From Gaiellales bacterium (GTDB lineage Bacteria > Actinomycetota > Thermoleophilia > Gaiellales > JAICJC01): a DNA stretch of 64,000 nucleotides. Where the stretch lies: contig DASUHM010000050.1 in assembly GCA_036273515.1 (NCBI GenBank), forward strand, positions 47,246-111,245, written 5' to 3'. Positions 41,913 to 55,188 of the stretch are shown here, piece by piece (within the stretch, counting starts at the first letter, position 1; each line of letters starts with the position of its first letter). A model generated the notes under the pieces. The model made no database searches. It saw nothing but the letters and a program-made list of their open reading frames with translations, and was not told the origin of the DNA. A program made the position numbers and the translations under genes.

Positions 41913-42499
41913 CCGGCCTCGATCGGCCGGCCGACAGTGAGCGCCTCGCGCAGCTCCGGCTCGATCAGCTCGTTGAAGGCCGCGTCGGGGTTGCAGCCGA
42001 GGGCGTCGAGCGTCTTGCTGAAGAAGCACCGCGCCGCCGCGGCCAGGACGACGTCGAGGATCTCGGCGTCGGAGAGCCCCAGGCCGCGCAGGCGCTCGAT
42101 GTCGGCCTGCGTGACGGTGGTCGCGTCGACGGCGACCTTGTCGGCGAGGTCGATCACGGCCCGGTCGACGTCGTCGAGCTCGTCCGACGGCCGTCCCAGG
42201 GCGATGTCGCTCACCGCCGAGGCGGGCATGTGCCGCGCCAGGATGCGGCCGTGCGCGAGCGAGCAGTAGCTCGAGCGCAGGCGGCGGGCGGCCGCGAGCG
42301 TGGCGATCTCGTAGCGGCGCTCGTCCATGTTGGCCTTGATGGCCCCGTTCAGGCCGCGCCACGCTGCATAGACGCCCGGGCGATGAGAGTATGCGCGGGT
42401 GAAGTTCGGCAGGAATCCCCAGCCGGCGCGGTCGGTCTCGTACATGTCGGCGACGTCGCCCTCGGCGGCGTCGGTGGGGATCGTGTCGATGAACGCCAT
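41909..42499 (-). CDS. carboxymuconolactone decarboxylase / AhpD-like peroxidase-related protein
   Basis: ATG 42499 after GAAGGAAGAG ([21 protein letters not shown]...), with SSYCSLAHG. Confidence 0.75.
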
Positions 42500-42530
42500 C
42501 GGCTCTTCCTTCTCGTCTCGGCGGTGGTGG

Positions 42531-42839
42531 TCAGGCGGGCTCGCGCAGCGCTGCTGCGCGCGCGTCCGCGTGCCGGCGAAGCGTCTCACATACCTGGGCG
42601 CAGAGGGCGAACACCGCAGGGTCGCGGACGCGGTAGTAGCCGTGCAGACCCTGGCGGCGGCGCTCGACGAGGCCCGCGTCGGCCAGGAGCGCCAGGTGCT
42701 TCGACACGTTCGCCTGGGTGCAGCCGAGCTCGGTCGCGAGGCTGCCCACGCTGCGCTCGCCGTCGCCGAGGATGTCGAGCAGGCGCAGGCGCGTAGGCTC
42801 CGACAGGAGCCGGAACCGCTCGGCGATTGCCGTGGCCAT
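42531..42839 (-). CDS. ArsR/SmtB-family transcriptional regulator
   Basis: ATG 42839 (MATAIAERFRLLSEPTRLRLLDIL...VGSLATELGCTQANVSKHLALLADAGLV). Confidence 0.88.
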   Translation of the reverse strand: MATAIAERFRLLSEPTRLRLLDILGDGERSVGSLATELGCTQANVSKHLALLADAGLVERRRQGLHGYYRVRDPAVFALCAQVCETLRRHADARAAALREPA

Positions 42840-42935
42840 GGCAGGGGTAAGGGGGCGGGGCAGCGTCACTTGCAAAAGTGTACCGCATGTGCAACTATAT
42901 AGCTAGTCAGTTGAATATTGCTTGAAGGAGCATCT

Positions 42936-43274
42936 GTGTCCAGCATCGAGATCACCAAGAGCAACTTCCAGTCCGAGGTCGTCGACTCCGACGTCCCCGT
43001 CCTGCTCGACCTGTGGGCGGCCTGGTGTGGCCCGTGCCGCATGGTCTCCCCCATCGTCGACGAGCTCGCCGGCGACTACGCCGGGCGGATCAAGGTTGGC
43101 AAGGTCGACGTCGACGCCGAGCCCGAGCTGGCCGGCGCGTTCGGCGTCTCCAGCATCCCGACGCTTCTCCTGCTCAAGAACGGGGAGATCGTCGAGCGCG
43201 CGGTGGGAGCGCGGCCGAAGGCACAGCTCGCGCAGGCCCTGCGCCTGGACGAGCACGTGACCGCCGCCGTCTAG
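42936..43274 (+). CDS. trxA: thioredoxin
   Basis: GTG 42936, 6 nt after GAAGGAG. WCGPC active site in LDLWAAWCGPCRMV. Confidence 0.93.
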   Translation: MSSIEITKSNFQSEVVDSDVPVLLDLWAAWCGPCRMVSPIVDELAGDYAGRIKVGKVDVDAEPELAGAFGVSSIPTLLLLKNGEIVERAVGARPKAQLAQALRLDEHVTAAV

Positions 43275-43281
43275 ACCCGAC

Positions 43282-43300
43282 CCCTCCGAATCGGGGAGGG
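43282..43300 (+). terminator. weak hairpin after trxA
   Basis: CCCTCC-GAATCGG-GGAGGG, 8 nt after the TAG. No U tract. Confidence 0.3.
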
Positions 43301-43345
43301 CGGATCACCGCCGACGGGAGCGCGGCCGCGACGCCGCGCACCGAT

Positions 43346-44275
43346 TCAGTGACATACGCGGGCCGATGACCTGCCGCCGGTATCGGCCCGCGCTTCCCCC
43401 ACCTCTCGCTCGTACTGCACGGCTGCCCAGGCGACTCGCATCCCGGCGCGCTCGTACAGCCTGATCGCCGCCGCGTTGTCGCCGTCCACGCCGAGGCCGA
43501 CGCGGCGCTCGCCGGCGGCCCAGAGCCGCCGCAGCGCCTCGTGCAGCAGCACCGCGCCGATCCCCCGGCCCCGCCATTTGGCGCGCACGGCGAGTGCTTC
43601 GACGTAGCCCATCCCGAACGTCCGCGCCGTGCACAGGACGACCCCGCAGACGTCCGCGCCCTCCCGGGCGACGATCCACACGTCCGCGTCGAACCGCCCC
43701 TCCGCCGCCTTCCCCTCGCGCCATTCGGCCTGGTTCGTCCAGCGGTGCTCGAACGCCTCTTCGACACACGCGTCCACTCCGGCGTCGTCGACGCCGGGCC
43801 GGAAGGTCGCGAGCGCGATGCCGGGCGGCGGCGCGAGCGGCGGGGGCGCGGCGTCGAGATCGATGCGCATGCGCAGGTGCTGCGACTCCGCGACGTAGCC
43901 CCGGCGCTCGAGGAGCCGGCAGGCGGCCCGGTCGGCGGCGAGCACCGAGTTGCGCACGACCACGCTCCCGCCGGTCTCGGCCGCCCGCTGCTCCGTGAGG
44001 TCGACGAGCAGGCCGCCCACGCCATGCCCGGCATCGGCAGGGTGCGTCCAGCCGAGCGCGTACAGACGGCCGCCGTCCCTTGGGCGGAGCGTCGCGTGCC
44101 CGGCGAGCTCCCCGGCCCGCTCCGCCAGCCAGACGTCCGACGCCGTTCTCCACTCGTCCTCGACGTCCGTGACCGTCCAGGCGCCGTCGCCGCCGTACGC
44201 GGCGTCGTACGCGTTCACGAGCGCGGCCACCGCGGCGGCATCTTCCGGCCGCGGCGGTCGCGCCGCGAGCGTCAT
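43346..44275 (-). CDS. tandem-GNAT acetyltransferase (MshD-like architecture)
   Basis: ATG 44275 (ATGA overlap with the thrC-family stop). Two GNAT cores are present, the second with AVRAKWRGRGIGAVLLHEAL...AAAIRLYERAGM. Confidence 0.75.
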   Translation of the reverse strand: MTLAARPPRPEDAAAVAALVNAYDAAYGGDGAWTVTDVEDEWRTASDVWLAERAGELAGHATLRPRDGGRLYALGWTHPADAGHGVGGLLVDLTEQRAAETGGSVVVRNSVLAADRAACRLLERRGYVAESQHLRMRIDLDAAPPPLAPPPGIALATFRPGVDDAGVDACVEEAFEHRWTNQAEWREGKAAEGRFDADVWIVAREGADVCGVVLCTARTFGMGYVEALAVRAKWRGRGIGAVLLHEALRRLWAAGERRVGLGVDGDNAAAIRLYERAGMRVAWAAVQYEREVGEARADTGGRSSARVCH

Positions 44276-45495
44276 GCCTGAAGCGGCTGGGCCAGCGCCT
44301 CGTCGACGGCGTCCGCGTCGGCCGGGATCGCGATCGTCTCGACCGCGGGCTCCACCGCGTCGACGGTCTTCAGGCCGTCGCCGGTGATGTACACGACGAC
44401 GGTCTCGCCGGCGCCGATCTCGCCGCGCTCGGCCAGCTTGCGCAGGACCGCGGTCGTGACGCCGCCCGCCGTCTCGGTGAAGATGCCGGTGGTGCGGGCG
44501 AGCAGCTGGATGCCCTCGACGATCTCCGCGTCGGAGGCCGCCTCGATGCTGCCGCCGGTGCGGCGGGCGACCCCGAGCGCGTAGACGCCGTCGGCAGGGT
44601 TGCCGATCGCGAGCGACTTGGCGATGCCGGTCGGGCGGACGGGGACGACCTGATCGCCGCCCGCCGCAAACGCCGTGGCGACCGGGGAGCAGCCCTCGCC
44701 CTGCGAGCCGTGCATGACGGGCGCCGGCCCGGGCTCGATCAGCCCGGCGGCGCGGCCCTGCTCGAACCCCTGCAGGATCTTCGTGTAGAGCGAGCCGGAG
44801 GCGATCGGCGCGACCACGCGGTCGGGCGCCCGCCAGCCGAGCTGCTCGGCCGTCTCGAGCGCGATGGTCTTCGAGCCCTCCGAGTAGTAGGCGCGCATGT
44901 TCACGTTCACGAACGCCCACGGCCGGTCGTACGCGAGCTCCGAGCAGAGCCGGTTGACGTCATCGTACGAGCCGTCCACGGCGAACACGGTCGCGCCGTA
45001 GGCGGCCGCGGCGATGATCTTCTCCCGCTCGAGGTTCGCCGGCACGAAGATGTACGTCGGCAGGCCCAGCGCCGCCCCGGCGGCAGCCGTCGCGCCGGCC
45101 AGGTTGCCGGTCGAGGCGCACGCGAGCGCGCCGAAGCCGAGCTCGGCCGCCTTGGCGGCGGCCACCGCGACCACCCGGTCCTTGAACGAGTGGGTGGGGT
45201 TCGAGGTCTCGGTCTTCACGTAGAGCTCGCAGTCGAGGCCGAGCTCGGCCGCGAGCCGGTCGGCCCGTATCAGCGGCGAGCAGCCCACCGGCAGGCCCTT
45301 CTCGGGCGGCTCGACGGGCAGGAAGTCGGCGAAGCGCCAGAGCGTCTGCGGCCCGGCGGCGATGCGGTCGCGGGCGACCGGCTCGGACTCGTCCCAGCCC
45401 ACCTCGAGGGGGCCGAAACAGCGGTCACAGGCGAACAGGGCCTCCAGCGGATAGGTGGCGCCGCAGCCCTTGCAGGCGAGGTGGGTGGCCTTCAT
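44272..45495 (-). CDS. thrC: threonine-synthase-family PLP enzyme with an N-terminal Cys4 zinc ribbon
   Basis: 407 aa. Motifs: CKGCG...CDRC, the PLP-Lys motif NPTHSFKDR, and ASTGNLAG. It is preceded by a SAM-I riboswitch, so its physiological role may be in methionine rather than threonine synthesis. Confidence 0.8.
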   Translation of the reverse strand: MKATHLACKGCGATYPLEALFACDRCFGPLEVGWDESEPVARDRIAAGPQTLWRFADFLPVEPPEKGLPVGCSPLIRADRLAAELGLDCELYVKTETSNPTHSFKDRVVAVAAAKAAELGFGALACASTGNLAGATAAAGAALGLPTYIFVPANLEREKIIAAAAYGATVFAVDGSYDDVNRLCSELAYDRPWAFVNVNMRAYYSEGSKTIALETAEQLGWRAPDRVVAPIASGSLYTKILQGFEQGRAAGLIEPGPAPVMHGSQGEGCSPVATAFAAGGDQVVPVRPTGIAKSLAIGNPADGVYALGVARRTGGSIEAASDAEIVEGIQLLARTTGIFTETAGGVTTAVLRKLAERGEIGAGETVVVYITGDGLKTVDAVEPAVETIAIPADADAVDEALAQPLQA

Positions 45496-45543
45496 GGTCG
45501 ATCCCCTACGTTCGGGCCGGCGCCCTTCGGCGCGGCCGGTTCA

Positions 45544-45655
45544 CATCGTCCGGGATCCGCGGATCCCGCCGGATTTGGCACCTTTCCCCGCCGTGGCCGG
45601 GATGGTTGCCGAGGCTTCACAGGGCCGGTCCCTCCGCCTCTCTGGATGCGACGCC
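45544..45655 (-). promoter_or_regulatory. SAM-I (S-box) riboswitch
   Basis: The minus strand reads AUCCAGAGAGGCGGAGGGACCGGCCCUGUGAAGCCUCGGCAACC...AAAGGUGCCAAAUCCGGCGG...GGACGAUG. This matches the conserved SAM-I core almost position for position. A GC hairpin and GGGGA RBS lie between it and ATG 45495. Confidence 0.9.
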
Positions 45656-45729
45656 GGGGATCGCCCCGGCGGGTACGCAAACTGCTCGTCACATCGTAGC
45701 GGGAAGATTTCCCGTGCGGCCCGCGTCCC

Positions 45730-45930
45730 TTGGACATGTACGCCAACGCGCACGTGCACGAGGAGCTCTCACGGCTCCACTCCGCCGAGATCGCCGCCCA
45801 GGCCCGCCATGCGGACCTGCTCCGGCGCGCGCGGAGCGGCACCCTCCAGCCCGAGCTACGGGCCGGCCGCGAGCACGAACGGCGCGTACGCACGGCCGCG
45901 CGACGGCGCGGTCGGCCGGCGGTGGCCTAG
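45730..45930 (+). CDS. small hypothetical protein
   Basis: 66 aa (MDMYANAHVHEELSRLHSAEIAAQARHADLLRRA...). Weak call. Confidence 0.3.
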   Translation: MDMYANAHVHEELSRLHSAEIAAQARHADLLRRARSGTLQPELRAGREHERRVRTAARRRGRPAVA

Positions 45931-45965: not shown

Positions 45966-46313
45966 TCACCCCTCGCTCGGGCGGCTGCCTCGACCGGCCC
46001 GGTCAGGAATGATCTCGATCCGCGACCACGTCACCGAGGGCAGGGCGCCCGCCAGGAGCGCCGTCGCCGCGGCACGTGCGGCGTCCGCGTCGGCGGCCCG
46101 AACGGTGAGCGTCGCCTCCACGTCATCGCCCGCGCCGTCCCGGCCGAGCCGGGTGACGCCAAACCCGGACCCGGGCGCCGCGGTCTCGACCCACCGATGA
46201 GCCGCGAGAGCCTCCGCTCGCCCCCAGTGAGCATCGCTGGCGTCGCGGACGGCCGCGTCGGTGCCCTTCGCGGACACGCGCCAGAACGACTCGCCGGGCG
46301 CGCGTCCGCTCAT
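45966..46313 (-). CDS. hypothetical protein
   Basis: 115 aa, directly downstream of the sulfite reductase gene on the same strand. No family recognised. Confidence 0.4.
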   Translation of the reverse strand: MSGRAPGESFWRVSAKGTDAAVRDASDAHWGRAEALAAHRWVETAAPGSGFGVTRLGRDGAGDDVEATLTVRAADADAARAAATALLAGALPSVTWSRIEIIPDRAGRGSRPSEG

Positions 46314-46327
46314 GCCGCAAGCCTACG

Positions 46328-47983
46328 CTAGGCGGCTGCCTCGACCGGCTCGCGCGCCACGGCGACGCCTGCCAGCGCCGCCAGGCGCCGGTCGGACTGC
46401 TCCTGCGCCCAGGCGGCGAACGTGCCGTCGGCGGGCCGCTCGGCCGCGTAGGCGCGCACGATCCGCTCGACCGCGTAGCGGGCGTCGTCGGCCGGGATCG
46501 CCTTCGAGGCGACCCGCCGGCCGAACCCGGCGTCGGCGCCGAGGCGGCCGCCGATGTGCAGGATGAAGCCCTGCACGCGGGTGCCGTCCGCGAGCCGGGC
46601 GATGCCGCCCTGCAGGCCGATGTCGGCCACCTGGTACTGGGCACAGGCGTTGGGGCAGCCGTTCAGGTTGATCCGCAGCGATCCGGCCACGTCGCCGACC
46701 CGCTTCTCCAGGTGCTCGATCAGCTCGCGGGCGCGCTCCTTCGTCTCGACGATCGCGAGCTTGCAGAACTCCATTCCCGTGCACGAGATGATCCCGCGCC
46801 GGAAGGTCGACGCCCGGGTCGGCAGGCCGACGTCGGCGAGCGAGGCCGACGCCTCCTCGACGTCCGCGTCGGGCACGCCGAGGACGATGATGTTCTGGCG
46901 GTTCGTGCAGCGCAGCTCGCCCGAGCCGAAGCGGTCGGCGATGTCGGCGACGGCGATCATCTGCTCGCCCGAGAAGCGGCCGCGCAGCGTCGTCGCGCCG
47001 AGGTAGTAGAGGCCCGGCTCGACCTGCGGGTGGACGCCGAGGTGGTCGCGGTGGGGGTCGATCGGGTCGGCCGGGGCGACCGACGTCGGCAGCGACCGGC
47101 CCAGCTTGCGCTCGACCTCGGCCCGCAGCCGCTCGACGCCCCACTCGTCGACCAGGAACTTGACCCGCGCCCGCGTGCGCTTGGTGCGCTTACCCTCGTC
47201 GCGGTAGATCTCGGTGATCACGGCGCAGACCTCGGTGGCCTCCTCGGGCAGGACGAACGCATCCAGCCGCCGGCCCATGCGCGCCGACGCGCCCAGGCCG
47301 CCGCCGACCCAGACGTCGTAGCCGAGCACGCCGTCGCGCTCGACCGCGACCAGGCCGATGTCGTTGATCTCGTGCTGGGCGCAGCGGTGCAGGCAGCCCG
47401 ACACCGACACCTTGAACTTGCGCGGCAGGTTCGAGAAGCGCTTGTCGCCGACGAAGGTGCGCTCGAGCTCGGCGATCAGCGGGCGCGAGTCGAGCAGCTC
47501 GTGGCCGTCGACGCCGGCGAGCGGGCAGCCGACCACGTTGCGCCAGACGTCGCCGCAGGCCTGGGTGAACGAGAGCCCGACGGCGTTCAGCTCGTCGAGC
47601 ACGACGGGGAGATCCTCGATCCGCAGCCAGTGCAGCTGGATGTTCTGACGGGTCGTGATGTCGCCCATGCCCCGCCCGTAGCGCTCGGAGAGGCGACCGA
47701 TCGTGCGCAGCTGCTCGGACGTGACGATGCCGTTCGGGAACTTGATCCGGAGCATGAAGAGGCCGTCGGTGTCGTCGGACGGCCCGGGGTCGCCGGATGC
47801 GGCCGACTCCTCGGCCCGCTGGGTGTAGATGCCGTACCAGCGAAACAGGGTCAGGTCGTCCGGCGCGATCGCGTCGAAGCCGAGCTCGGCGTACCGGTAG
47901 ATGTCGGCAAGGACGTCCAGCCCGTCCTTGCGGGCCTTGATGTGCTCGATCTCCGGCAGCTTTGCAACGGCATCTACGGACAT
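46328..47983 (-). CDS. sirA: ferredoxin-dependent sulfite (NirA/Sir-type) reductase hemoprotein
   Basis: ATG 47983 (MSVDAVAKLPEIEHIKARKDG...). Siroheme/[4Fe-4S] Cys motifs SCTGMEFCKLA and LNGCPNACAQY. Confidence 0.88.
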   Translation of the reverse strand: MSVDAVAKLPEIEHIKARKDGLDVLADIYRYAELGFDAIAPDDLTLFRWYGIYTQRAEESAASGDPGPSDDTDGLFMLRIKFPNGIVTSEQLRTIGRLSERYGRGMGDITTRQNIQLHWLRIEDLPVVLDELNAVGLSFTQACGDVWRNVVGCPLAGVDGHELLDSRPLIAELERTFVGDKRFSNLPRKFKVSVSGCLHRCAQHEINDIGLVAVERDGVLGYDVWVGGGLGASARMGRRLDAFVLPEEATEVCAVITEIYRDEGKRTKRTRARVKFLVDEWGVERLRAEVERKLGRSLPTSVAPADPIDPHRDHLGVHPQVEPGLYYLGATTLRGRFSGEQMIAVADIADRFGSGELRCTNRQNIIVLGVPDADVEEASASLADVGLPTRASTFRRGIISCTGMEFCKLAIVETKERARELIEHLEKRVGDVAGSLRINLNGCPNACAQYQVADIGLQGGIARLADGTRVQGFILHIGGRLGADAGFGRRVASKAIPADDARYAVERIVRAYAAERPADGTFAAWAQEQSDRRLAALAGVAVAREPVEAAA

Positions 47984-50027: not shown

Positions 50028-50477
50028 TCACGCCGCTGCCTGGCCGGCGATCCAGACCGCCGCCGTGACGGTGCACGCGACGGGCCAGCGCCACCACACC
50101 TCGTACGGCGAGCGCAGCGACCATACGCTCCCGCACACGTACGTGAGCACGGTCGCGGCGACGGCCGCCGGCGGGTACGCCGCGGAGCCGCCGCGGACGA
50201 CGGCGCCGGCAACTGCGGCGTCGAACGCGGCCGCCCAGGCCACCACCGCGGTCACGATCACCCGCTCGATTGCGCCCGCCCGGCCCATTCCGGGGAGCGC
50301 CACAGGGCCGACCCAGGCGGCCAGCAGCGCGAGCAGCGCCGCGCTGCCGCCGATGATCCCGAGCGACGCCGACCCGGCGCCGACAGCGGCCACGCCGAGG
50401 GGCGCGGCGGGGAGCGCCACGGCCAAAGTCCCGGCCGCCGCCCAGCGCGGCGGCGAGGCCGTCCGCACCAGCTGCAT
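50028..50477 (-). CDS. membrane protein, hypothetical
   Basis: ATG 50477 (MQLVRTASPPRWAAAGTLAVALPAAPLG...). 149 aa, 4 TM-like segments. TGATG junction with the rhodanese stop. Confidence 0.5.
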   Translation of the reverse strand: MQLVRTASPPRWAAAGTLAVALPAAPLGVAAVGAGSASLGIIGGSAALLALLAAWVGPVALPGMGRAGAIERVIVTAVVAWAAAFDAAVAGAVVRGGSAAYPPAAVAATVLTYVCGSVWSLRSPYEVWWRWPVACTVTAAVWIAGQAAA

Positions 50478-51130
50478 CAGGCCGCGCCGAGCAGGTCGAG
50501 GCCGATCGGCCGCTCCAGCAGGTCGGCCACGCCGCCGTCGGCGACGCGCCAGACGTTGCGGTGGCCCCAGCGGCGAAGCGCGCTCGCCGCGACGGCGGCG
50601 CGGCGGCCGTCGGAGCAGCACGCCACCGTCGGAACGTCCGGAAGCAGGTGCGCCGCCCCGCGCAGCGCCGCGAGCGGCAGGTGCACGGAGCCGGGCACGT
50701 AGCCGCACCGCCACTCGGCGGTCTCGCGGACGTCGATCAGGAGCACCGCGCCGGTCGCAAGCTCGTCCGCGAGACGATCGACCTCGATCGCCCCGCCGCG
50801 CGCCAACGGATGGCCCCCGACGGCGCGGCCGGGATGGTCGCCGGCCACCGCGCCGAGCAACTCGCGGAACCCGGCGGCCTCGAGCTCGGCCTCGAGTTCG
50901 ACCGCCTGCTCGAGCCGCGCCGCCAGCGCGAGCACCGGCACGTCGCGCGAGAGCACGAGGGCCGCCAGCCCGCCGGCGCCCGGCCCGGCGGGCACGTTCA
51001 CGGCGCCCTGGAGGTGACCGGCGTCGAACGCCTGGGGCGCGCGCCCGTCGACGACGGCGGCGCCGGCCCGCAGCGCGCCGGCCACGGGGGCCGGGCCGAC
51101 GAGGCGCAGGCGCGTGCCGGCCGCGCTCAT
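50477..51130 (-). CDS. tandem rhodanese-domain sulfurtransferase-like protein
   Basis: ATG 51130. Two rhodanese modules; the second has the active-site loop VACCSDGRRAA. Confidence 0.7.
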   Translation of the reverse strand: MSAAGTRLRLVGPAPVAGALRAGAAVVDGRAPQAFDAGHLQGAVNVPAGPGAGGLAALVLSRDVPVLALAARLEQAVELEAELEAAGFRELLGAVAGDHPGRAVGGHPLARGGAIEVDRLADELATGAVLLIDVRETAEWRCGYVPGSVHLPLAALRGAAHLLPDVPTVACCSDGRRAAVAASALRRWGHRNVWRVADGGVADLLERPIGLDLLGAA

Positions 51131-51492
51131 CCGACCGCCTTTCCGGCGACGAGCCCGCCCCACTCGTCGTCGTCCGCCTCCGCCGTCTCGGAGAGCGCCC
51201 GCACGGGGGCCCGCTCGAACACGCCGGCGGCCGCGCGCACGCAGCTGCCCGTGTCGGCGAAGAGGGAGTCCATGGTGATGCCGAACGCGGCCGCGATCCG
51301 CTGCGCCGTCCGCGAGCGCGGCTCCGAGCGGCCATGGAGGATGTTCCAGAGCCCCTGCGGCGACAGCCCGAGGTAGCGGGCGAGCCGCTGCTGGCTGACG
51401 TTGTGCATGCCGAGCAGGTGCCGGACGTTGGTTCCCAAGCTTGCTGCTGCCACTGGTTGATGCCTCTCCTGGTTCGCGTCGAGCTCCCCCAT
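51127..51492 (-). CDS. XRE-family helix-turn-helix regulator
   Basis: HTH LGTNVRHLLGMHNVSQQRLARYLGLSPQGLWNILHGR. The start is uncertain (ATG 51492 or the track start at 51519). ATGA overlap with the rhodanese gene. Confidence 0.7.
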   Translation of the reverse strand: MGELDANQERHQPVAAASLGTNVRHLLGMHNVSQQRLARYLGLSPQGLWNILHGRSEPRSRTAQRIAAAFGITMDSLFADTGSCVRAAAGVFERAPVRALSETAEADDDEWGGLVAGKAVG

Positions 51493-51569
51493 TCGAGGGT
51501 TCTCGCTTGACAGTCTCACGCACCCATCCTACCCTAATCTCAACTTAGTCGATAGACAAAGGAGAAAAG

Positions 51570-52604
51570 TTGAACCGAGTACAAGTACGGATCGCGGCGG
51601 CCGGGGCCGTCGTCCTCTCGATCGTCGCCCTGGCGGCGGCTTGCGGGGGCAGCGGCGGAAGCACCGCCGATGCCGCGTCTGGTGGGAAGATCAACCTCGT
51701 CGCCTACTCGACGCCCGAGACGTCGTACGCGAAGCTGATCCCCGCCTTCAACACGACGTCGGAGGGCAAGGGCGTCACCTTCACGCAGTCCTACGGCGCC
51801 TCCGGCGACCAGAGCCGGGCGGTCGCCGCCGGGCAGGCCGCCGACGTCGTCCACTTCGCCCTCGAGCCGGACATCTCGCGGCTCGTCGACGCGAAGCTGG
51901 TCAGTCCCAACTGGAATCAGAACCAGTACAACGGCTTCGTCGCGGACACCATGGTCGTGTTCGTCGTCCGCAAGGGCAACCCGAAGCACATCACCACCTG
52001 GGACGACCTGACCAAGCCCGGCGTCGAGGTGATCACGCCCAACCCGTTCACCTCGGGCGGCGCCCGCTGGAACATCATGGCGGCGTACGGCGCCCAGCTG
52101 AAGGAAGGCAAGACCCCCGCGCAGGCCCAGCAGTACCTGAGCGACCTGTTCCACCACGTGCCTGTCCAGGACGACAAGGCATCCGCCGCCCTGCAGACGT
52201 TCACCGGTGGCAAGGGTGACGTGCTCCTCGCCTACGAGCAGGACGCCCTGCTCGCTCAGGAGAGCGGCGCGGACATCCAGATCGTGTACCCCCCGCAGAC
52301 GATCCAGATCCAGACGCCGATCGCGACGACGGTGAAGGCCTCGTCCGCCGCGAAGAGCTTCGTCAAGTGGATGTACACGCCCCAGGCTCAGACGATCCTG
52401 GCCCAGACCGGCTACCGGCCGGTGGTCTCGAGCGTCGAGTCCGCGTTCACCAAGGCGTTCCCGGACGCCGGCAACCCCACCCAGTTCACGATCGACGACG
52501 TCGACTCGGGCGGCTGGGATGACGTGATGACGAAGTTCTTCGATCCGACGAACAGCGTCATGCAGAAGATCGAGTCCAGCATCGGAGTGTCGACCAGCTC
52601 ATGA
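51570..52604 (+). CDS. sbp: sulfate/thiosulfate ABC transporter substrate-binding lipoprotein
   Basis: TTG 51570, 5 nt after AAAGGAGAAAAG. Lipobox LAAACGG. Sbp/CysP family sequence. Confidence 0.88.
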   Translation: MNRVQVRIAAAGAVVLSIVALAAACGGSGGSTADAASGGKINLVAYSTPETSYAKLIPAFNTTSEGKGVTFTQSYGASGDQSRAVAAGQAADVVHFALEPDISRLVDAKLVSPNWNQNQYNGFVADTMVVFVVRKGNPKHITTWDDLTKPGVEVITPNPFTSGGARWNIMAAYGAQLKEGKTPAQAQQYLSDLFHHVPVQDDKASAALQTFTGGKGDVLLAYEQDALLAQESGADIQIVYPPQTIQIQTPIATTVKASSAAKSFVKWMYTPQAQTILAQTGYRPVVSSVESAFTKAFPDAGNPTQFTIDDVDSGGWDDVMTKFFDPTNSVMQKIESSIGVSTSS

Positions 52605-53419
52605 CGACGGTCGCACTCCCGCGCAGGCGGGCCTCCGGGGCGGCGCTACCCAGCGTCGCTCCGGGGGTTGCGATCACCTACCTGTCGGTGGTCGTGCTCC
52701 TGCCGCTCTCCGCCCTCCTGTGGGAGTCCCACAAGGGCGGCCTCGACGCCTTCTGGCAGGCGGTCACCGCTCCCGATGCGGTGGCCGCGCTCAAGCTCAC
52801 CCTCGGAGCGGCGCTGCTCGTCGCCCTGATCAACGCCGTCTTCGGCACCCTGATCGCGTGGGTGCTGGTGCGCGACTCCTTCATCGGGAAAGGGCTCGTG
52901 AACTCGCTCATCGACCTGCCGTTCGCCCTGCCGACGGTGGTGGCCGGCCTCACCCTGCTCACCCTGTACGGCCCCAACTCCCCGATCGGCCTGAACATCA
53001 CCTACACCCGCAAGGCGGTCGTGCTCGCGCTGATGTTCGAGACGCTGCCGTTCGTCATCCGCAGCGTCCAGCCGGTGCTGCTCGAGCTCGACCGCGAGAT
53101 GGAGGAGGCGGCCGCATCGCTCGGTGCCCGCGGCCACGTCATCTTCCGCCGCGTCGTCCTGCCGAACCTGATGCCGGCGATCTTCTCCGGCATGGCGCTC
53201 GCCTTCGCCCGGGCGGTCGGCGAGTACGGCTCGGTCGTGATGCTCTCGGGCAACGTGCCGTTCTCGACCGAGGTCGCCTCGGTGCACATCTACTCGCAGA
53301 TCCAGAGCGACTACGTGACCGGTGCGACCGCGATGTCGGTCGTCCTGCTCTCGATCTCGCTCGTCGTGCTCCTGTCCATCTCCGCCCTCCACCGCTGGAG
53401 CTCGAAGCATGATCGTTAA
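52601..53419 (+). CDS. cysT: sulfate ABC transporter permease CysT
   Basis: 272 aa. Contains an EAA-loop segment EAAASLGARGHVIFRRVVLP. Confidence 0.88.
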   Translation: MTTVALPRRRASGAALPSVAPGVAITYLSVVVLLPLSALLWESHKGGLDAFWQAVTAPDAVAALKLTLGAALLVALINAVFGTLIAWVLVRDSFIGKGLVNSLIDLPFALPTVVAGLTLLTLYGPNSPIGLNITYTRKAVVLALMFETLPFVIRSVQPVLLELDREMEEAAASLGARGHVIFRRVVLPNLMPAIFSGMALAFARAVGEYGSVVMLSGNVPFSTEVASVHIYSQIQSDYVTGATAMSVVLLSISLVVLLSISALHRWSSKHDR

Positions 53420-54200
53420 GTACGGGCTCCGCTTCGTGGCGCTGACCTACCTGGCGCTGCTCCTGATCATCCCGGTCGGGATGATCGTCGCGCACACCTT
53501 CTCCGGCGGCATCGCACCCGTCTGGACCGCGCTCACCGACCCGGACGCGATCAAGGCGCTCGAGCTGACGCTCAAGATCGCGATCATCGTCGTCCCGCTG
53601 AACACGCTGTTCGGGATCACGATGGCGCTCGTCATGGTGCGGCGCGAGTTCCGCGGCAAGGCGCTGCTCTCGGCCCTGATCGACCTGCCCTTCGCCGTCT
53701 CGCCCGTCATCGTGGGCTTCACGCTGATCCTGGTGTACGGCATGAACGGCTGGTTCGGCGAGTTCTTCATCAACCAGGGCTACCCGATCATCTTCTCGAC
53801 GCCGGGCATGGTGCTCGCGACGATGTTCGCGTCGCTCCCGTTCGTCTGCCGCGAGGTGATCCCGGTGCTGCGCGAGATCGGCACCGAGCAGGAGCAGGCG
53901 GCGGCGACGCTGGGCGCGCGGGCGCATCAGACGTTCCGGCGCGTCACCCTGCCGGCGATCCGCTGGGGCATCGTCTACGGCGTCGTCCTCACGACCGCAC
54001 GCGCGATCGGCGAGTACGGCGCCGTCGCCGTCGTCTCGGGCAACGTGATCGGCCAGACCCAGACGCTGACGCTCCGCGTCTCGCAGGAGTATCAGAACTT
54101 CGACCACATCGCGGCCTACACGGCGGCGCTCGAGCTCGCCGTGATCGCACTCGTGACCCTGTTCCTGATGAACCTGTTCCACCCCCGAAAGGACCACTAG
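53409..54200 (+). CDS. cysW: sulfate ABC transporter permease CysW
   Basis: ATG 53409 ([15 protein letters not shown]...). EAA-loop-like [21 protein letters not shown]. 11-nt overlap with cysT. Confidence 0.88.
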
Positions 54201-54207
54201 CTCAGAT

Positions 54208-55188
54208 ATGGCAATCACCGTCCGCAACGTGAACAAGCGCTTCGGCGACTTCGTGGCACTCGACGATGTCAGCCTTGAAGTGCCGGCGGGATCGCTGACG
54301 GCGCTCCTGGGCCCCAGCGGGAGCGGCAAGTCGACGCTCCTGCGCGTCATCGCCGGTCTCGAGAAGGCCGACCAGGGCGAGGTCTTCATCGGGGGCGCCG
54401 AGGCGACGAAGCTGCCGCCGCAGCGACGCGACATCGGCTTCGTGTTCCAGCACTACGCCGCCTTCAAGCACATGACAGTCGCCAAGAACGTGGCGTTCGG
54501 CCTCGAGATCCGCAAGCGGCCCAAGGACGAGGTGAAGCGACGGGTGGCGGAGCTGCTCGACCTCGTCCAGCTCGACGGCTTCGGCGACCGCTACCCGTCC
54601 CAGCTCTCGGGCGGCCAGCGCCAGCGCATGGCGCTCGCCCGCGCGCTCGCGGTCGAGCCCGAGGTGCTGCTCCTCGACGAGCCCTTCGGCGCCCTCGACG
54701 CCAAGGTGCGCAGTGAGCTGCGCGCCTGGCTGCGGCGGCTGCACGACGAGATGCACGTCACCACCGTGTTCGTCACCCATGACCAGGAAGAGGCCATGGA
54801 GGTGTCGGACACGATCGTGCTCATGGATCACGGGCGGATCGTCCAGGAGGGCCGCCCGCAGGATCTCTACGACCATCCCGAGACCGAGTTCGTGATGCGC
54901 TTCATGGGCCAGGTCAACCGGATCGGCGACGTCTACGTGCGCCCGCACGACGTCGAGATCCGGCTCGAGCCCAACGGCACCACCGAGGCGGCGGTCGTCG
55001 AGCGAGTCCTGCACATGGGCCACCACATCCGCGTCGACCTGACCGTGAACGGCGGCGACCCGGTGTCGGCCCAGCTCACCCGCGACGAGGCGGAGCGGCT
55101 CGGCCTCGAGCCGGGCCGGCCGGTTTTCGTGCGCCCCGCGAAGGCCAGGACCTTCGCCGGCGAGCCGGAAGCCGAGGCCGTCTCCTGA
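54208..55188 (+). CDS. cysA: sulfate ABC transporter ATP-binding protein
   Basis: Walker [10 protein letters not shown], signature LSGGQRQR, Walker [12 protein letters not shown], and a C-terminal TOBE-like domain. Confidence 0.9.

Follow-up and report, generated by a model that had tools for sequence, protein, structure and literature searches.

A SAM-I riboswitch precedes a probable MetM-type homocysteine synthase gene, of a kind annotated as threonine synthase, in Gaiellales

In Mycobacterium tuberculosis, CysM, CysO and Mec form cysteine from O-phosphoserine and a protein thiocarboxylate. A corresponding logic has been proposed for MetM and MetO, in which a fold-type-II pyridoxal phosphate (PLP) enzyme displaces phosphate with sulfur borne by a MoaD-like protein with a C-terminal GG. 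MetM was described by Hasebe et al. 2024 (Appl Environ Microbiol 90:e01247-24, as cited in PMC12172450) as a homologue of threonine synthase (ThrC) that makes homocysteine from O-phospho-L-homoserine. As summarised in PMC12172450, the enzyme takes its sulfur from the thiocarboxylate of the carrier protein MetO, and in Streptomyces albulus an S-adenosylmethionine (SAM) riboswitch lies upstream of metM. GapMind 2026 (bioRxiv 10.1101/2024.10.14.618325) states that MetM "is often misannotated" as threonine synthase. Here we analysed a window of 64 kb (the whole stretch of DNA under study, from contig DASUHM010000050.1 of a Gaiellales bacterium, Thermoleophilia), in which a ThrC-homologous gene follows a SAM-I (S-box) riboswitch. 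We consider it quite probable that the locus is a SAM-I-controlled methionine operon, that its first gene encodes a MetM-type homocysteine synthase and not a threonine synthase, and that its leader acts through a switch between the Shine-Dalgarno (SD) sequence and an anti-SD. The two central features are as follows.

45540..45652 (-): SAM-I (S-box) aptamer with helices P1-P4
44272..45495 (-): metM-like gene encoding a 407-aa zinc-ribbon fold-type-II PLP enzyme, assigned from its open reading frame (ORF), domains and clade, and predicted to be an O-phosphohomoserine-dependent homocysteine synthase

The locus shares with MetM/MetO of S. albulus a ThrC-homologous PLP enzyme, a SAM riboswitch upstream and the routine annotation as threonine synthase, and its enzyme falls in one clade with 75 metO-linked genes, including that of a riboswitch-metM-metO locus of Nonomuraea. 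It differs in that metO is not found within 64 kb, that a tandem-GNAT gene occupies the metO slot, that a sulfite reductase gene lies ahead, that the residues E10 and T290 are replaced, and that a 5'-flank anti-SD is present where the homologues have other expression platforms. The CysM/CysO/Mec system is more distant: its enzyme belongs to the CysK/CysM sub-family and uses another substrate, and the window contains no carrier gene. An association of a riboswitch with a ThrC homologue was already published in 2024, and the locus is not a new kind of system; what is new and local is a MetM clade that is MetO-less, usually linked to a sulfite reductase, partly coupled to a GNAT gene and equipped with its own expression platform. 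The original prediction, made from the letters of the window, had referred to ThrC-like enzymes of actinomycetes that convert O-phosphohomoserine toward homocysteine, and the work of Hasebe et al. 2024, cited in PMC12172450 and in the GapMind preprint, provides that precedent.

A cmscan of the entire window returned a sole Rfam match. This was RF00162 (SAM-I/S-box) at 45540-45652 (-), which scored 84.6 bits (gathering score 44.4 bits; E 1.5e-18) and spanned all 108 model positions. According to the structure line of the alignment, P1-P4 are all formed, with the P1 strands at 45651-45645 and 45547-45541, and the S-box core named in the original prediction, AUCCAGAGAGGCGGAGGGACCGGCCCUGUGAAGCCUCGGCAACC...AAAGGUGCCAAAUCC...GGACGAUG, was recovered letter for letter. 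A covariance model built from Gaiellales aptamers (R1) scored the same element at 130.4 bits. The aptamer ends 44 nt from the ATG of the metM-like gene. SAM-I elements occupy the same position 5' of the orthologue in 13 of 13 Gaiellales-type loci with DNA examined, and model R1, run over 87 sources, detected one directly 5' of the metM-like gene in 74 of them, which make up every actinobacterial locus. The same search detected none upstream in the cyanobacterial loci, Manganitrophaceae or Dehalococcoidia; for the cyanobacteria this agrees with the Microcystis MetM homologue that PMC12172450 describes as lacking the riboswitch. Since the aptamer recurs at the equivalent position upstream of orthologues, the match is not due to chance, and the SAM-I riboswitch 5' of the metM-like gene is genuine. 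That 45540-45652 (-) senses SAM and controls expression is predicted from its membership in the aptamer family.

The 407-aa protein begins with a CxxC...CxxC zinc ribbon (C8, C11, C23 and C26) and contains a PALP domain (PF00291, 223 bits), with the PLP lysine K105 in an SFKDR motif that is invariant throughout the clade; the description as a zinc-ribbon ThrC-family PLP enzyme was thus accurate. Database relatives at 66-95% identity come from metagenome-assembled genomes of Gaiellales and are all named threonine synthase; an assembly index had no entry for the identical protein. The zinc-ribbon ThrC model NF006050 was failed (231.9 vs 303 bits), and cysteate synthase was rejected as an identity (TIGR03844, 63.9 bits vs a cutoff of 324.9). 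The window protein shares 52% identity with the Nonomuraea MetM-like protein and 52-64% with metO-linked proteins, versus 33-35% with three outgroups, namely Brevibacillus ThrC from a hom-thrC-thrB operon, the canonical ThrC of Nonomuraea and a haloarchaeal zinc-ribbon "thrC". A neighbour-joining tree, of the kind that had been suggested as a check, placed the window protein within the tight metO-linked MetM clade, separated by a long branch from the three ThrC outgroups.

Residues point in the same direction as the tree. With Brevibacillus and canonical Nonomuraea ThrC as the reference, we found positions that are at least 97% conserved in the clade, the window protein included, and at which both canonical ThrCs differ (ThrC residue in brackets): L132 (T), R201 (N), Y204 (R) and S208 (Q). 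Further positions with at least 97% conservation that separate the clade from ThrC are S233-G-S235 (N-A-G), C269 (A), K293-S294 (T-A) and A296 (R). Several of these residues probably fall within the substrate-phosphate and PLP-phosphate sites of ThrC structures.

The metO-linked members of the clade were found in other lineages. A tblastn search of a plasmid collection matched a Nonomuraea gerenzanensis record (11.85 Mb) with 51.8% identity over the full length. The matching locus, at 11.81 Mb, consists in order of a SAM-I element (68.7 bits), the ThrC-like gene, 24 nt and a 91-aa ORF ending in VAGG, which is the published order riboswitch-metM-metO. On the same chromosome, at 2.50 Mb, lies a second gene of the family, a canonical thrC with 58% identity to Brevibacillus ThrC. 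Scanning one genome per species gave 80 further homologous loci with 54-96% identity. A MetO-type gene (~90 aa, homologous to the Nonomuraea small protein) lies 3-300 nt downstream on the same strand in 75 loci, that is, in 74 of these 80 and in Nonomuraea (L006); 61 of the 75 small proteins end in VAGG, and they match MoaD/SAMP1 models. A Streptomyces MetM was not among the sequences retrieved, as the plasmid collection gave only Nonomuraea and the homologue search seeded with Nonomuraea MetM gave only Streptosporangiales. As a side observation, the Nonomuraea record (NZ_LT559118.1, L006/L089) is listed in PLSDB as "Nonomuraea gerenzanensis plasmid I" with only 10 annotated features; its 11.85 Mb carry groEL, canonical thrC and metM-metO, indicating a chromosome filed as a plasmid.

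We conclude from the sequence comparisons that the metM-like gene most likely encodes an enzyme of the MetM clade and is mis-called as "threonine synthase", as the original prediction had suspected. Several results weigh against this assignment. The protein passes the NCBI thrC equivalog TIGR00260 (248.4 bits vs a cutoff of 167.1), although this pass also explains how the mis-call arises. A cyanobacterial homologue is reported in PMC12172450 to act in vitro as a threonine synthase/deaminase, with no clear MetM activity, and activity within the clade may therefore vary. The link to the assayed S. albulus MetM is indirect, running through gene context and secondary citations. Lastly, tblastn with Nonomuraea MetO gave nothing significant for metO in the 64-kb window and none in 13 related Gaiellales-type loci (L001-L005, L007, L090-L095) with flanks of at most 10 kb.

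The first two of these results bear on whether the gene could encode a genuine threonine synthase whose expression is adjusted by SAM, so that O-phosphohomoserine is shared out between the threonine and methionine branches. Such an enzyme would fit the nearest solved structures, which are all threonine synthases (2zsj, 6cgq, 2d1f and 1uim, 146-185 bits), and no second thrC was found within the 64-kb window. The protein has in common with ThrC a fold-type-II PLP domain, an SFKDR lysine motif and the STGN substrate loop, and O-phosphohomoserine is probably the substrate of both. We nevertheless regard this explanation as very improbable. The protein clusters with metO-linked proteins and not with operon-verified ThrC, other residues stand at the active-site positions conserved in ThrC, and the extra N-terminal zinc ribbon sets it further apart. 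The gene is under SAM regulation, neither hom nor thrB was found near it, and its neighbours belong to sulfur assimilation. Nonomuraea possesses the riboswitch-linked gene in addition to canonical thrC. An OFF switch acting on ThrC at high SAM would steer O-phosphohomoserine to methionine. Plant threonine synthase is activated by SAM, which is the opposite logic. Control of a true ThrC at the homoserine branch point, raised in the original prediction as an option, thus found no support in clade, residues, context or regulatory logic.

The leader between the aptamer and the metM-like gene, together with the 5' flank of the aptamer, contains the following elements.

45693..45698 (-): candidate -10 element TACGAT, proposed for the riboswitch transcript
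45652..45671 (-): 5' hairpin CGCCGGGG-CGAU-CCCCGGCG, proposed anti-sequestor, present in the SD-free fold and in co-transcriptional sub-folds
45515..45537 (-): G+C-rich spacer hairpin, present in the minimum free energy (MFE) fold, without a U-tract
45493..45506 (-): SD GGGGAUCG (45506-45499) and ATG (45495-45493), pairing with the 5'-flank anti-SD in the MFE structure

In the MFE fold of 45680-45484 the aptamer is kept, and P1 is extended by a long-range helix between the 5' flank GGCGAUCCCC (45665-45656) and the SD region GGGGAUCGAC. The thermodynamic model gave the SD a probability of 0.01-0.09 of being unpaired, and energies of -97.8 kcal/mol with the SD paired vs -93.6 kcal/mol for the best SD-free fold, a difference of 4.2 kcal/mol. 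The anti-SD CGAUCCCC (45663-45656) is part of the 3' half of hairpin 45671-45652, and in the SD-free fold, as well as in the co-transcriptional sub-folds, it is held by this local hairpin.

Comparison of leaders demonstrated that the pairing of anti-SD and SD is kept in 8 of 8 (five distinct sequences), with 8-10 of 10 pairs retained in the seven leaders of the GGGGAUC type and 7 of 10 in L090. GAUCCCC and its partner CCGGGG are conserved across Gaiellales leaders. At position 3 the C-G pair is replaced by a compensatory U-A in L003, L004 and L091; at position 2 a G·A mismatch is replaced by G-C (L004, L091) or by a U·G wobble (L003). L090, whose leader diverges most, has an entirely different yet complementary pair, CCUUCG with CGAAGG. 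The spacer hairpin, whose presence next to the ribosome-binding site (RBS) had been noted correctly in the original prediction, varies in sequence but stays base-paired in relatives and is absent from L003 and L090. Two other platforms were rejected. An intrinsic terminator does not fit, as neither a U-tract terminator nor a terminator-like site was found in the leader and the G+C-rich hairpin has no U-tract and is dispensable in L003 and L090. The 3' strand of P4 as anti-SD was discarded as its complementarity is not conserved in L003 or L004.

Together these data suggest how the switch would operate. When SAM is plentiful it would bind the aptamer and stabilise P1, which would continue into the helix formed by the anti-SD and the RBS; translation of metM, and of the GNAT gene coupled to it by an ATGA overlap, would then be blocked. 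When SAM is scarce, the anti-SD would be held in the local 5' hairpin and the RBS would be free. Three points count against so simple a switch. The duplex energies only modestly beat shuffled controls, 4-36 of 500 shuffles being equally good; in the thermodynamic model P1 is able to form in the SD-paired and SD-free conformers alike; and in that model SD pairing is favoured even without ligand. As P1 can coexist with either conformer, occlusion of the RBS in response to SAM binding is a putative step of the scheme. With the SAM-I elements of Bacillota the riboswitch shares the RF00162 aptamer and the predicted role of an OFF switch on methionine and sulfur genes, whereas the classic Bacillota elements terminate transcription and the window element, lacking a U-tract terminator, would sequester the RBS.

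The 5'-flank anti-SD appears to be specific to the Gaiellales clade. In the Solirubrobacterales orthologues (L014, L046 and L010) the same aptamer is joined to a terminator made of a hairpin and a U-run, and in the Nonomuraea (L006) and Acidimicrobiia (L055) orthologues the SD and start codon follow immediately after the 3' strand of P1. The loci thus form a natural series in which one aptamer is combined with three expression platforms before orthologous genes. Upstream of the aptamer, a consensus promoter scan of the leader found no promoter. At the candidate -10 element, CTAC[C/G]ATG is invariant among five aligned related leaders, and a -35-like TTGCCG/TTGACG lies ~18 nt further upstream in the relatives and is degenerate in the window.

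The genes around the metM-like gene include the following.

46328..47983 (-): gene for a NirA/SirA-type ferredoxin-dependent sulfite (or nitrite) reductase, with NIR_SIR and NIR_SIR_ferr domains
43346..44275 (-): tandem-GNAT acetyltransferase gene, 309 aa, with two GNAT stretches and an ATGA overlap with the stop of the metM-like gene
42918..43274 (+): thioredoxin gene, convergent with the operon (TIGR01068, 120.6 bits vs a cutoff of 96.8)
50477-51163 (-): rhodanese-domain protein
51127-51453 (-): HTH_3 regulator
51570-55188 (+): cysP-cysT-cysW-cysA sulfate ABC transporter, with models above cutoffs

The region 50477-55188, further upstream of the metM-like gene, is a sulfur-assimilation neighbourhood; cysH, cysD and cysN were not seen in the annotated part of the window. 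The reductase gene, whose best NCBIfam matches are under cutoff, lies upstream on the same strand as the metM-like gene and outside the riboswitch transcript as we infer it. Its synteny is kept in L001-L005, L007, L091, L094, L095 and L062, and the P0104 and L090 loci have no such gene beside metM. The thioredoxin gene adjoins the metM-like gene in all Gaiellales-type loci save L090 and the cut-off L093, and a GntR regulator is a further usual neighbour. In the sister lineage L062, an uncultured Actinomycetes chromosome (OY970326.1), two SAM-I riboswitches lie 2.8 kb apart (L062:1971-4973). The first lies ahead of the gene for an 852-aa sulfite reductase with two rhodanese domains fused to it, and the second precedes a metM-like gene that is followed by secE-nusG-rplK instead of metO.

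According to the inferred clade membership and the published MetM work, the enzyme would form homocysteine by exchanging the phosphate of O-phospho-L-homoserine for sulfur. The sulfur may come from a carrier encoded elsewhere, or from sulfide or persulfide supplied by the adjacent sulfite-reductase/rhodanese context. The second option amounts to a MetO-independent variant, in which the Gaiellales MetM would be a direct O-phosphohomoserine sulfhydrylase using sulfide or persulfide from the sulfite reductase and rhodanese. This variant refines the MetM assignment and does not contradict it; it is plausible, and we hold it as a tentative possibility. It is in line with the lack of metO within 5-10 kb in the 13 Gaiellales-type loci and in the window, where the gene is adjacent in 75 other loci; L062 is also without metO. 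At the P0104 locus no metO-sized gene was called, and none of the small ORFs ending in GG in the window is carrier-like. The clade and its sister L062 usually stand directly behind a sulfite reductase, which in L062 is rhodanese-fused and has a SAM-I element of its own.

The window protein departs from MetO-linked proteins at two positions that hardly vary among them. E10, of the zinc-ribbon motif CxEC, is E in 75 of 75 metO-linked and 119 of 119 Streptosporangiales proteins; of 112 Gaiellales-type proteins, 107 have G at this residue, while L062 has H and the orphans L071, L079 and L090 have N. T290 is replaced by G in Gaiellales and in the independent orphans L071 and L079. A third change, N134G, was rejected as orphan-specific since G is found also in metO-linked Streptosporangiales. 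The correlation for E10 is imperfect: L048, L078, L092 and L093 keep E without an adjacent metO. This speaks against a MetO-independent enzyme, as do the loci without a sulfite reductase gene and the fact that metO could be encoded elsewhere in the genome. A further-reaching proposal, which we think unlikely, is that this soil Gaiellales clade has dispensed with the MetO thiocarboxylate altogether and that MetM takes its sulfur from sulfide or persulfide supplied by the adjacent sulfite reductase and rhodanese, or from a small acyl-sulfur compound made by the GNAT protein, whose gene would have taken the place of metO in the operon. If true, O-phosphohomoserine would be converted to homocysteine by a route not described before, and E10 and T290 would be candidate carrier-docking determinants of MetM. 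As it stands, a MetO-less clade with substitutions at near-invariant positions offers a modest lead on the sulfur-donor specificity of the MetM family.

One Gaiellales-type locus, L092, is a mosaic. Aligned to window 42030-45474, L092:1-3425 has 94% DNA identity on the thioredoxin side (thioredoxin protein 100%), and its metM allele, of the CKEC type, has 82% DNA and 77% protein identity to the window. Its riboswitch belongs to another sequence type, and only a remnant is left of the GNAT gene. By its sequence, the mosaic looks like allelic replacement or recombination at the metM slot.

The gene directly downstream of the metM-like gene sits at the position that metO holds in other lineages. 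The ATGA-coupled tandem-GNAT protein named in the original prediction exists, as the overlap with a 309-aa protein is real, yet the arrangement is limited to one Gaiellales sub-clade. A GNAT gene lies 3' of the metM-like gene in 7 loci (window, L001, L002, L007, L093, L094 and L095), with the decayed remnant in L092; L094 and L095 were reached by looking up two GNAT homologues, and there the gene occupies the same slot with a GTGA overlap. It is absent from L003, L004, L005, L091, the P0104 locus and L090, and since it is missing from these six loci it stands outside the conserved core. The GNAT gene is a stable operon member in one Gaiellales sub-clade, and an initial view of it as a recent one-off insertion was revised, as the homologues in L094 and L095, along with L093, share the slot.

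It is possible to imagine that the ThrC-like enzyme and the GNAT protein together carry out a different SAM-regulated reaction, in which the GNAT protein might N-acetylate a product or toxic analogue, take part in MshD-like thiol synthesis, or provide an acyl-activated substrate or sulfur donor. The translational coupling, the shared slot at the exact metO position, two instances of which were reached through the GNAT gene itself, and a weak tandem-GNAT similarity to mycothiol synthase (MshD equivalog TIGR03448, E 1e-15, covering 37-288) point that way. The same model is failed at 57.9 bits vs a cutoff of 163.1. The GNAT gene is absent in about half of the Gaiellales-type loci, in which the riboswitch and the metM-like gene are unchanged, and the MetM-clade active-site residues are unaltered in GNAT-linked proteins. 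GNAT identity is 50-67% where MetM, reductase and thioredoxin have 88-96% (window vs L094, L095 and L007), and a comparison of these same four proteins gave 56-67% against 88-91%; such fast divergence suggests relaxed or diversifying selection, and with the remnant in L092 it makes a joint reaction doubtful, so that we give it little weight beside the MetM assignment. The closest solved relative of the GNAT protein is the uncharacterised tandem GNAT 3tt2. Only 138 proteins in a large database match it at E <= 1e-10, and the few with a named organism are mostly from Gaiellales. A 712-aa PALP-GNAT "fusion", P0118 (L001:8001-10139), was rejected as a functional link. It is most likely an assembly frameshift, as fragmented genes abound in L001 and an error of one nucleotide at the ATGA would fuse the two frames.

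Given the MetM assignment, hundreds of proteins from Gaiellales, Solirubrobacterales, Acidimicrobiia and Streptosporangiales that now bear the label "threonine synthase" most likely act as homocysteine synthases. Their re-annotation alters the reconstruction of methionine and threonine pathways in abundant, mostly uncultured soil Actinomycetota.

Two further ORFs were observed between the reductase gene and the riboswitch. The first, of 115 aa (45966-46313, minus strand), has no family match and lies within ~300 nt of extra sequence that is missing from L002 and L003; its codon statistics are weak (G+C at second codon positions 0.69), and it is probably non-coding. The second, of 66 aa (45730-45930, plus strand), lies between the reductase gene and the riboswitch promoter on the opposite strand, has a G+C content of 0.89 at third codon positions (GC3) and no Pfam match; L002, L094 and L095 have a called gene of 64-76 aa at the equivalent place.

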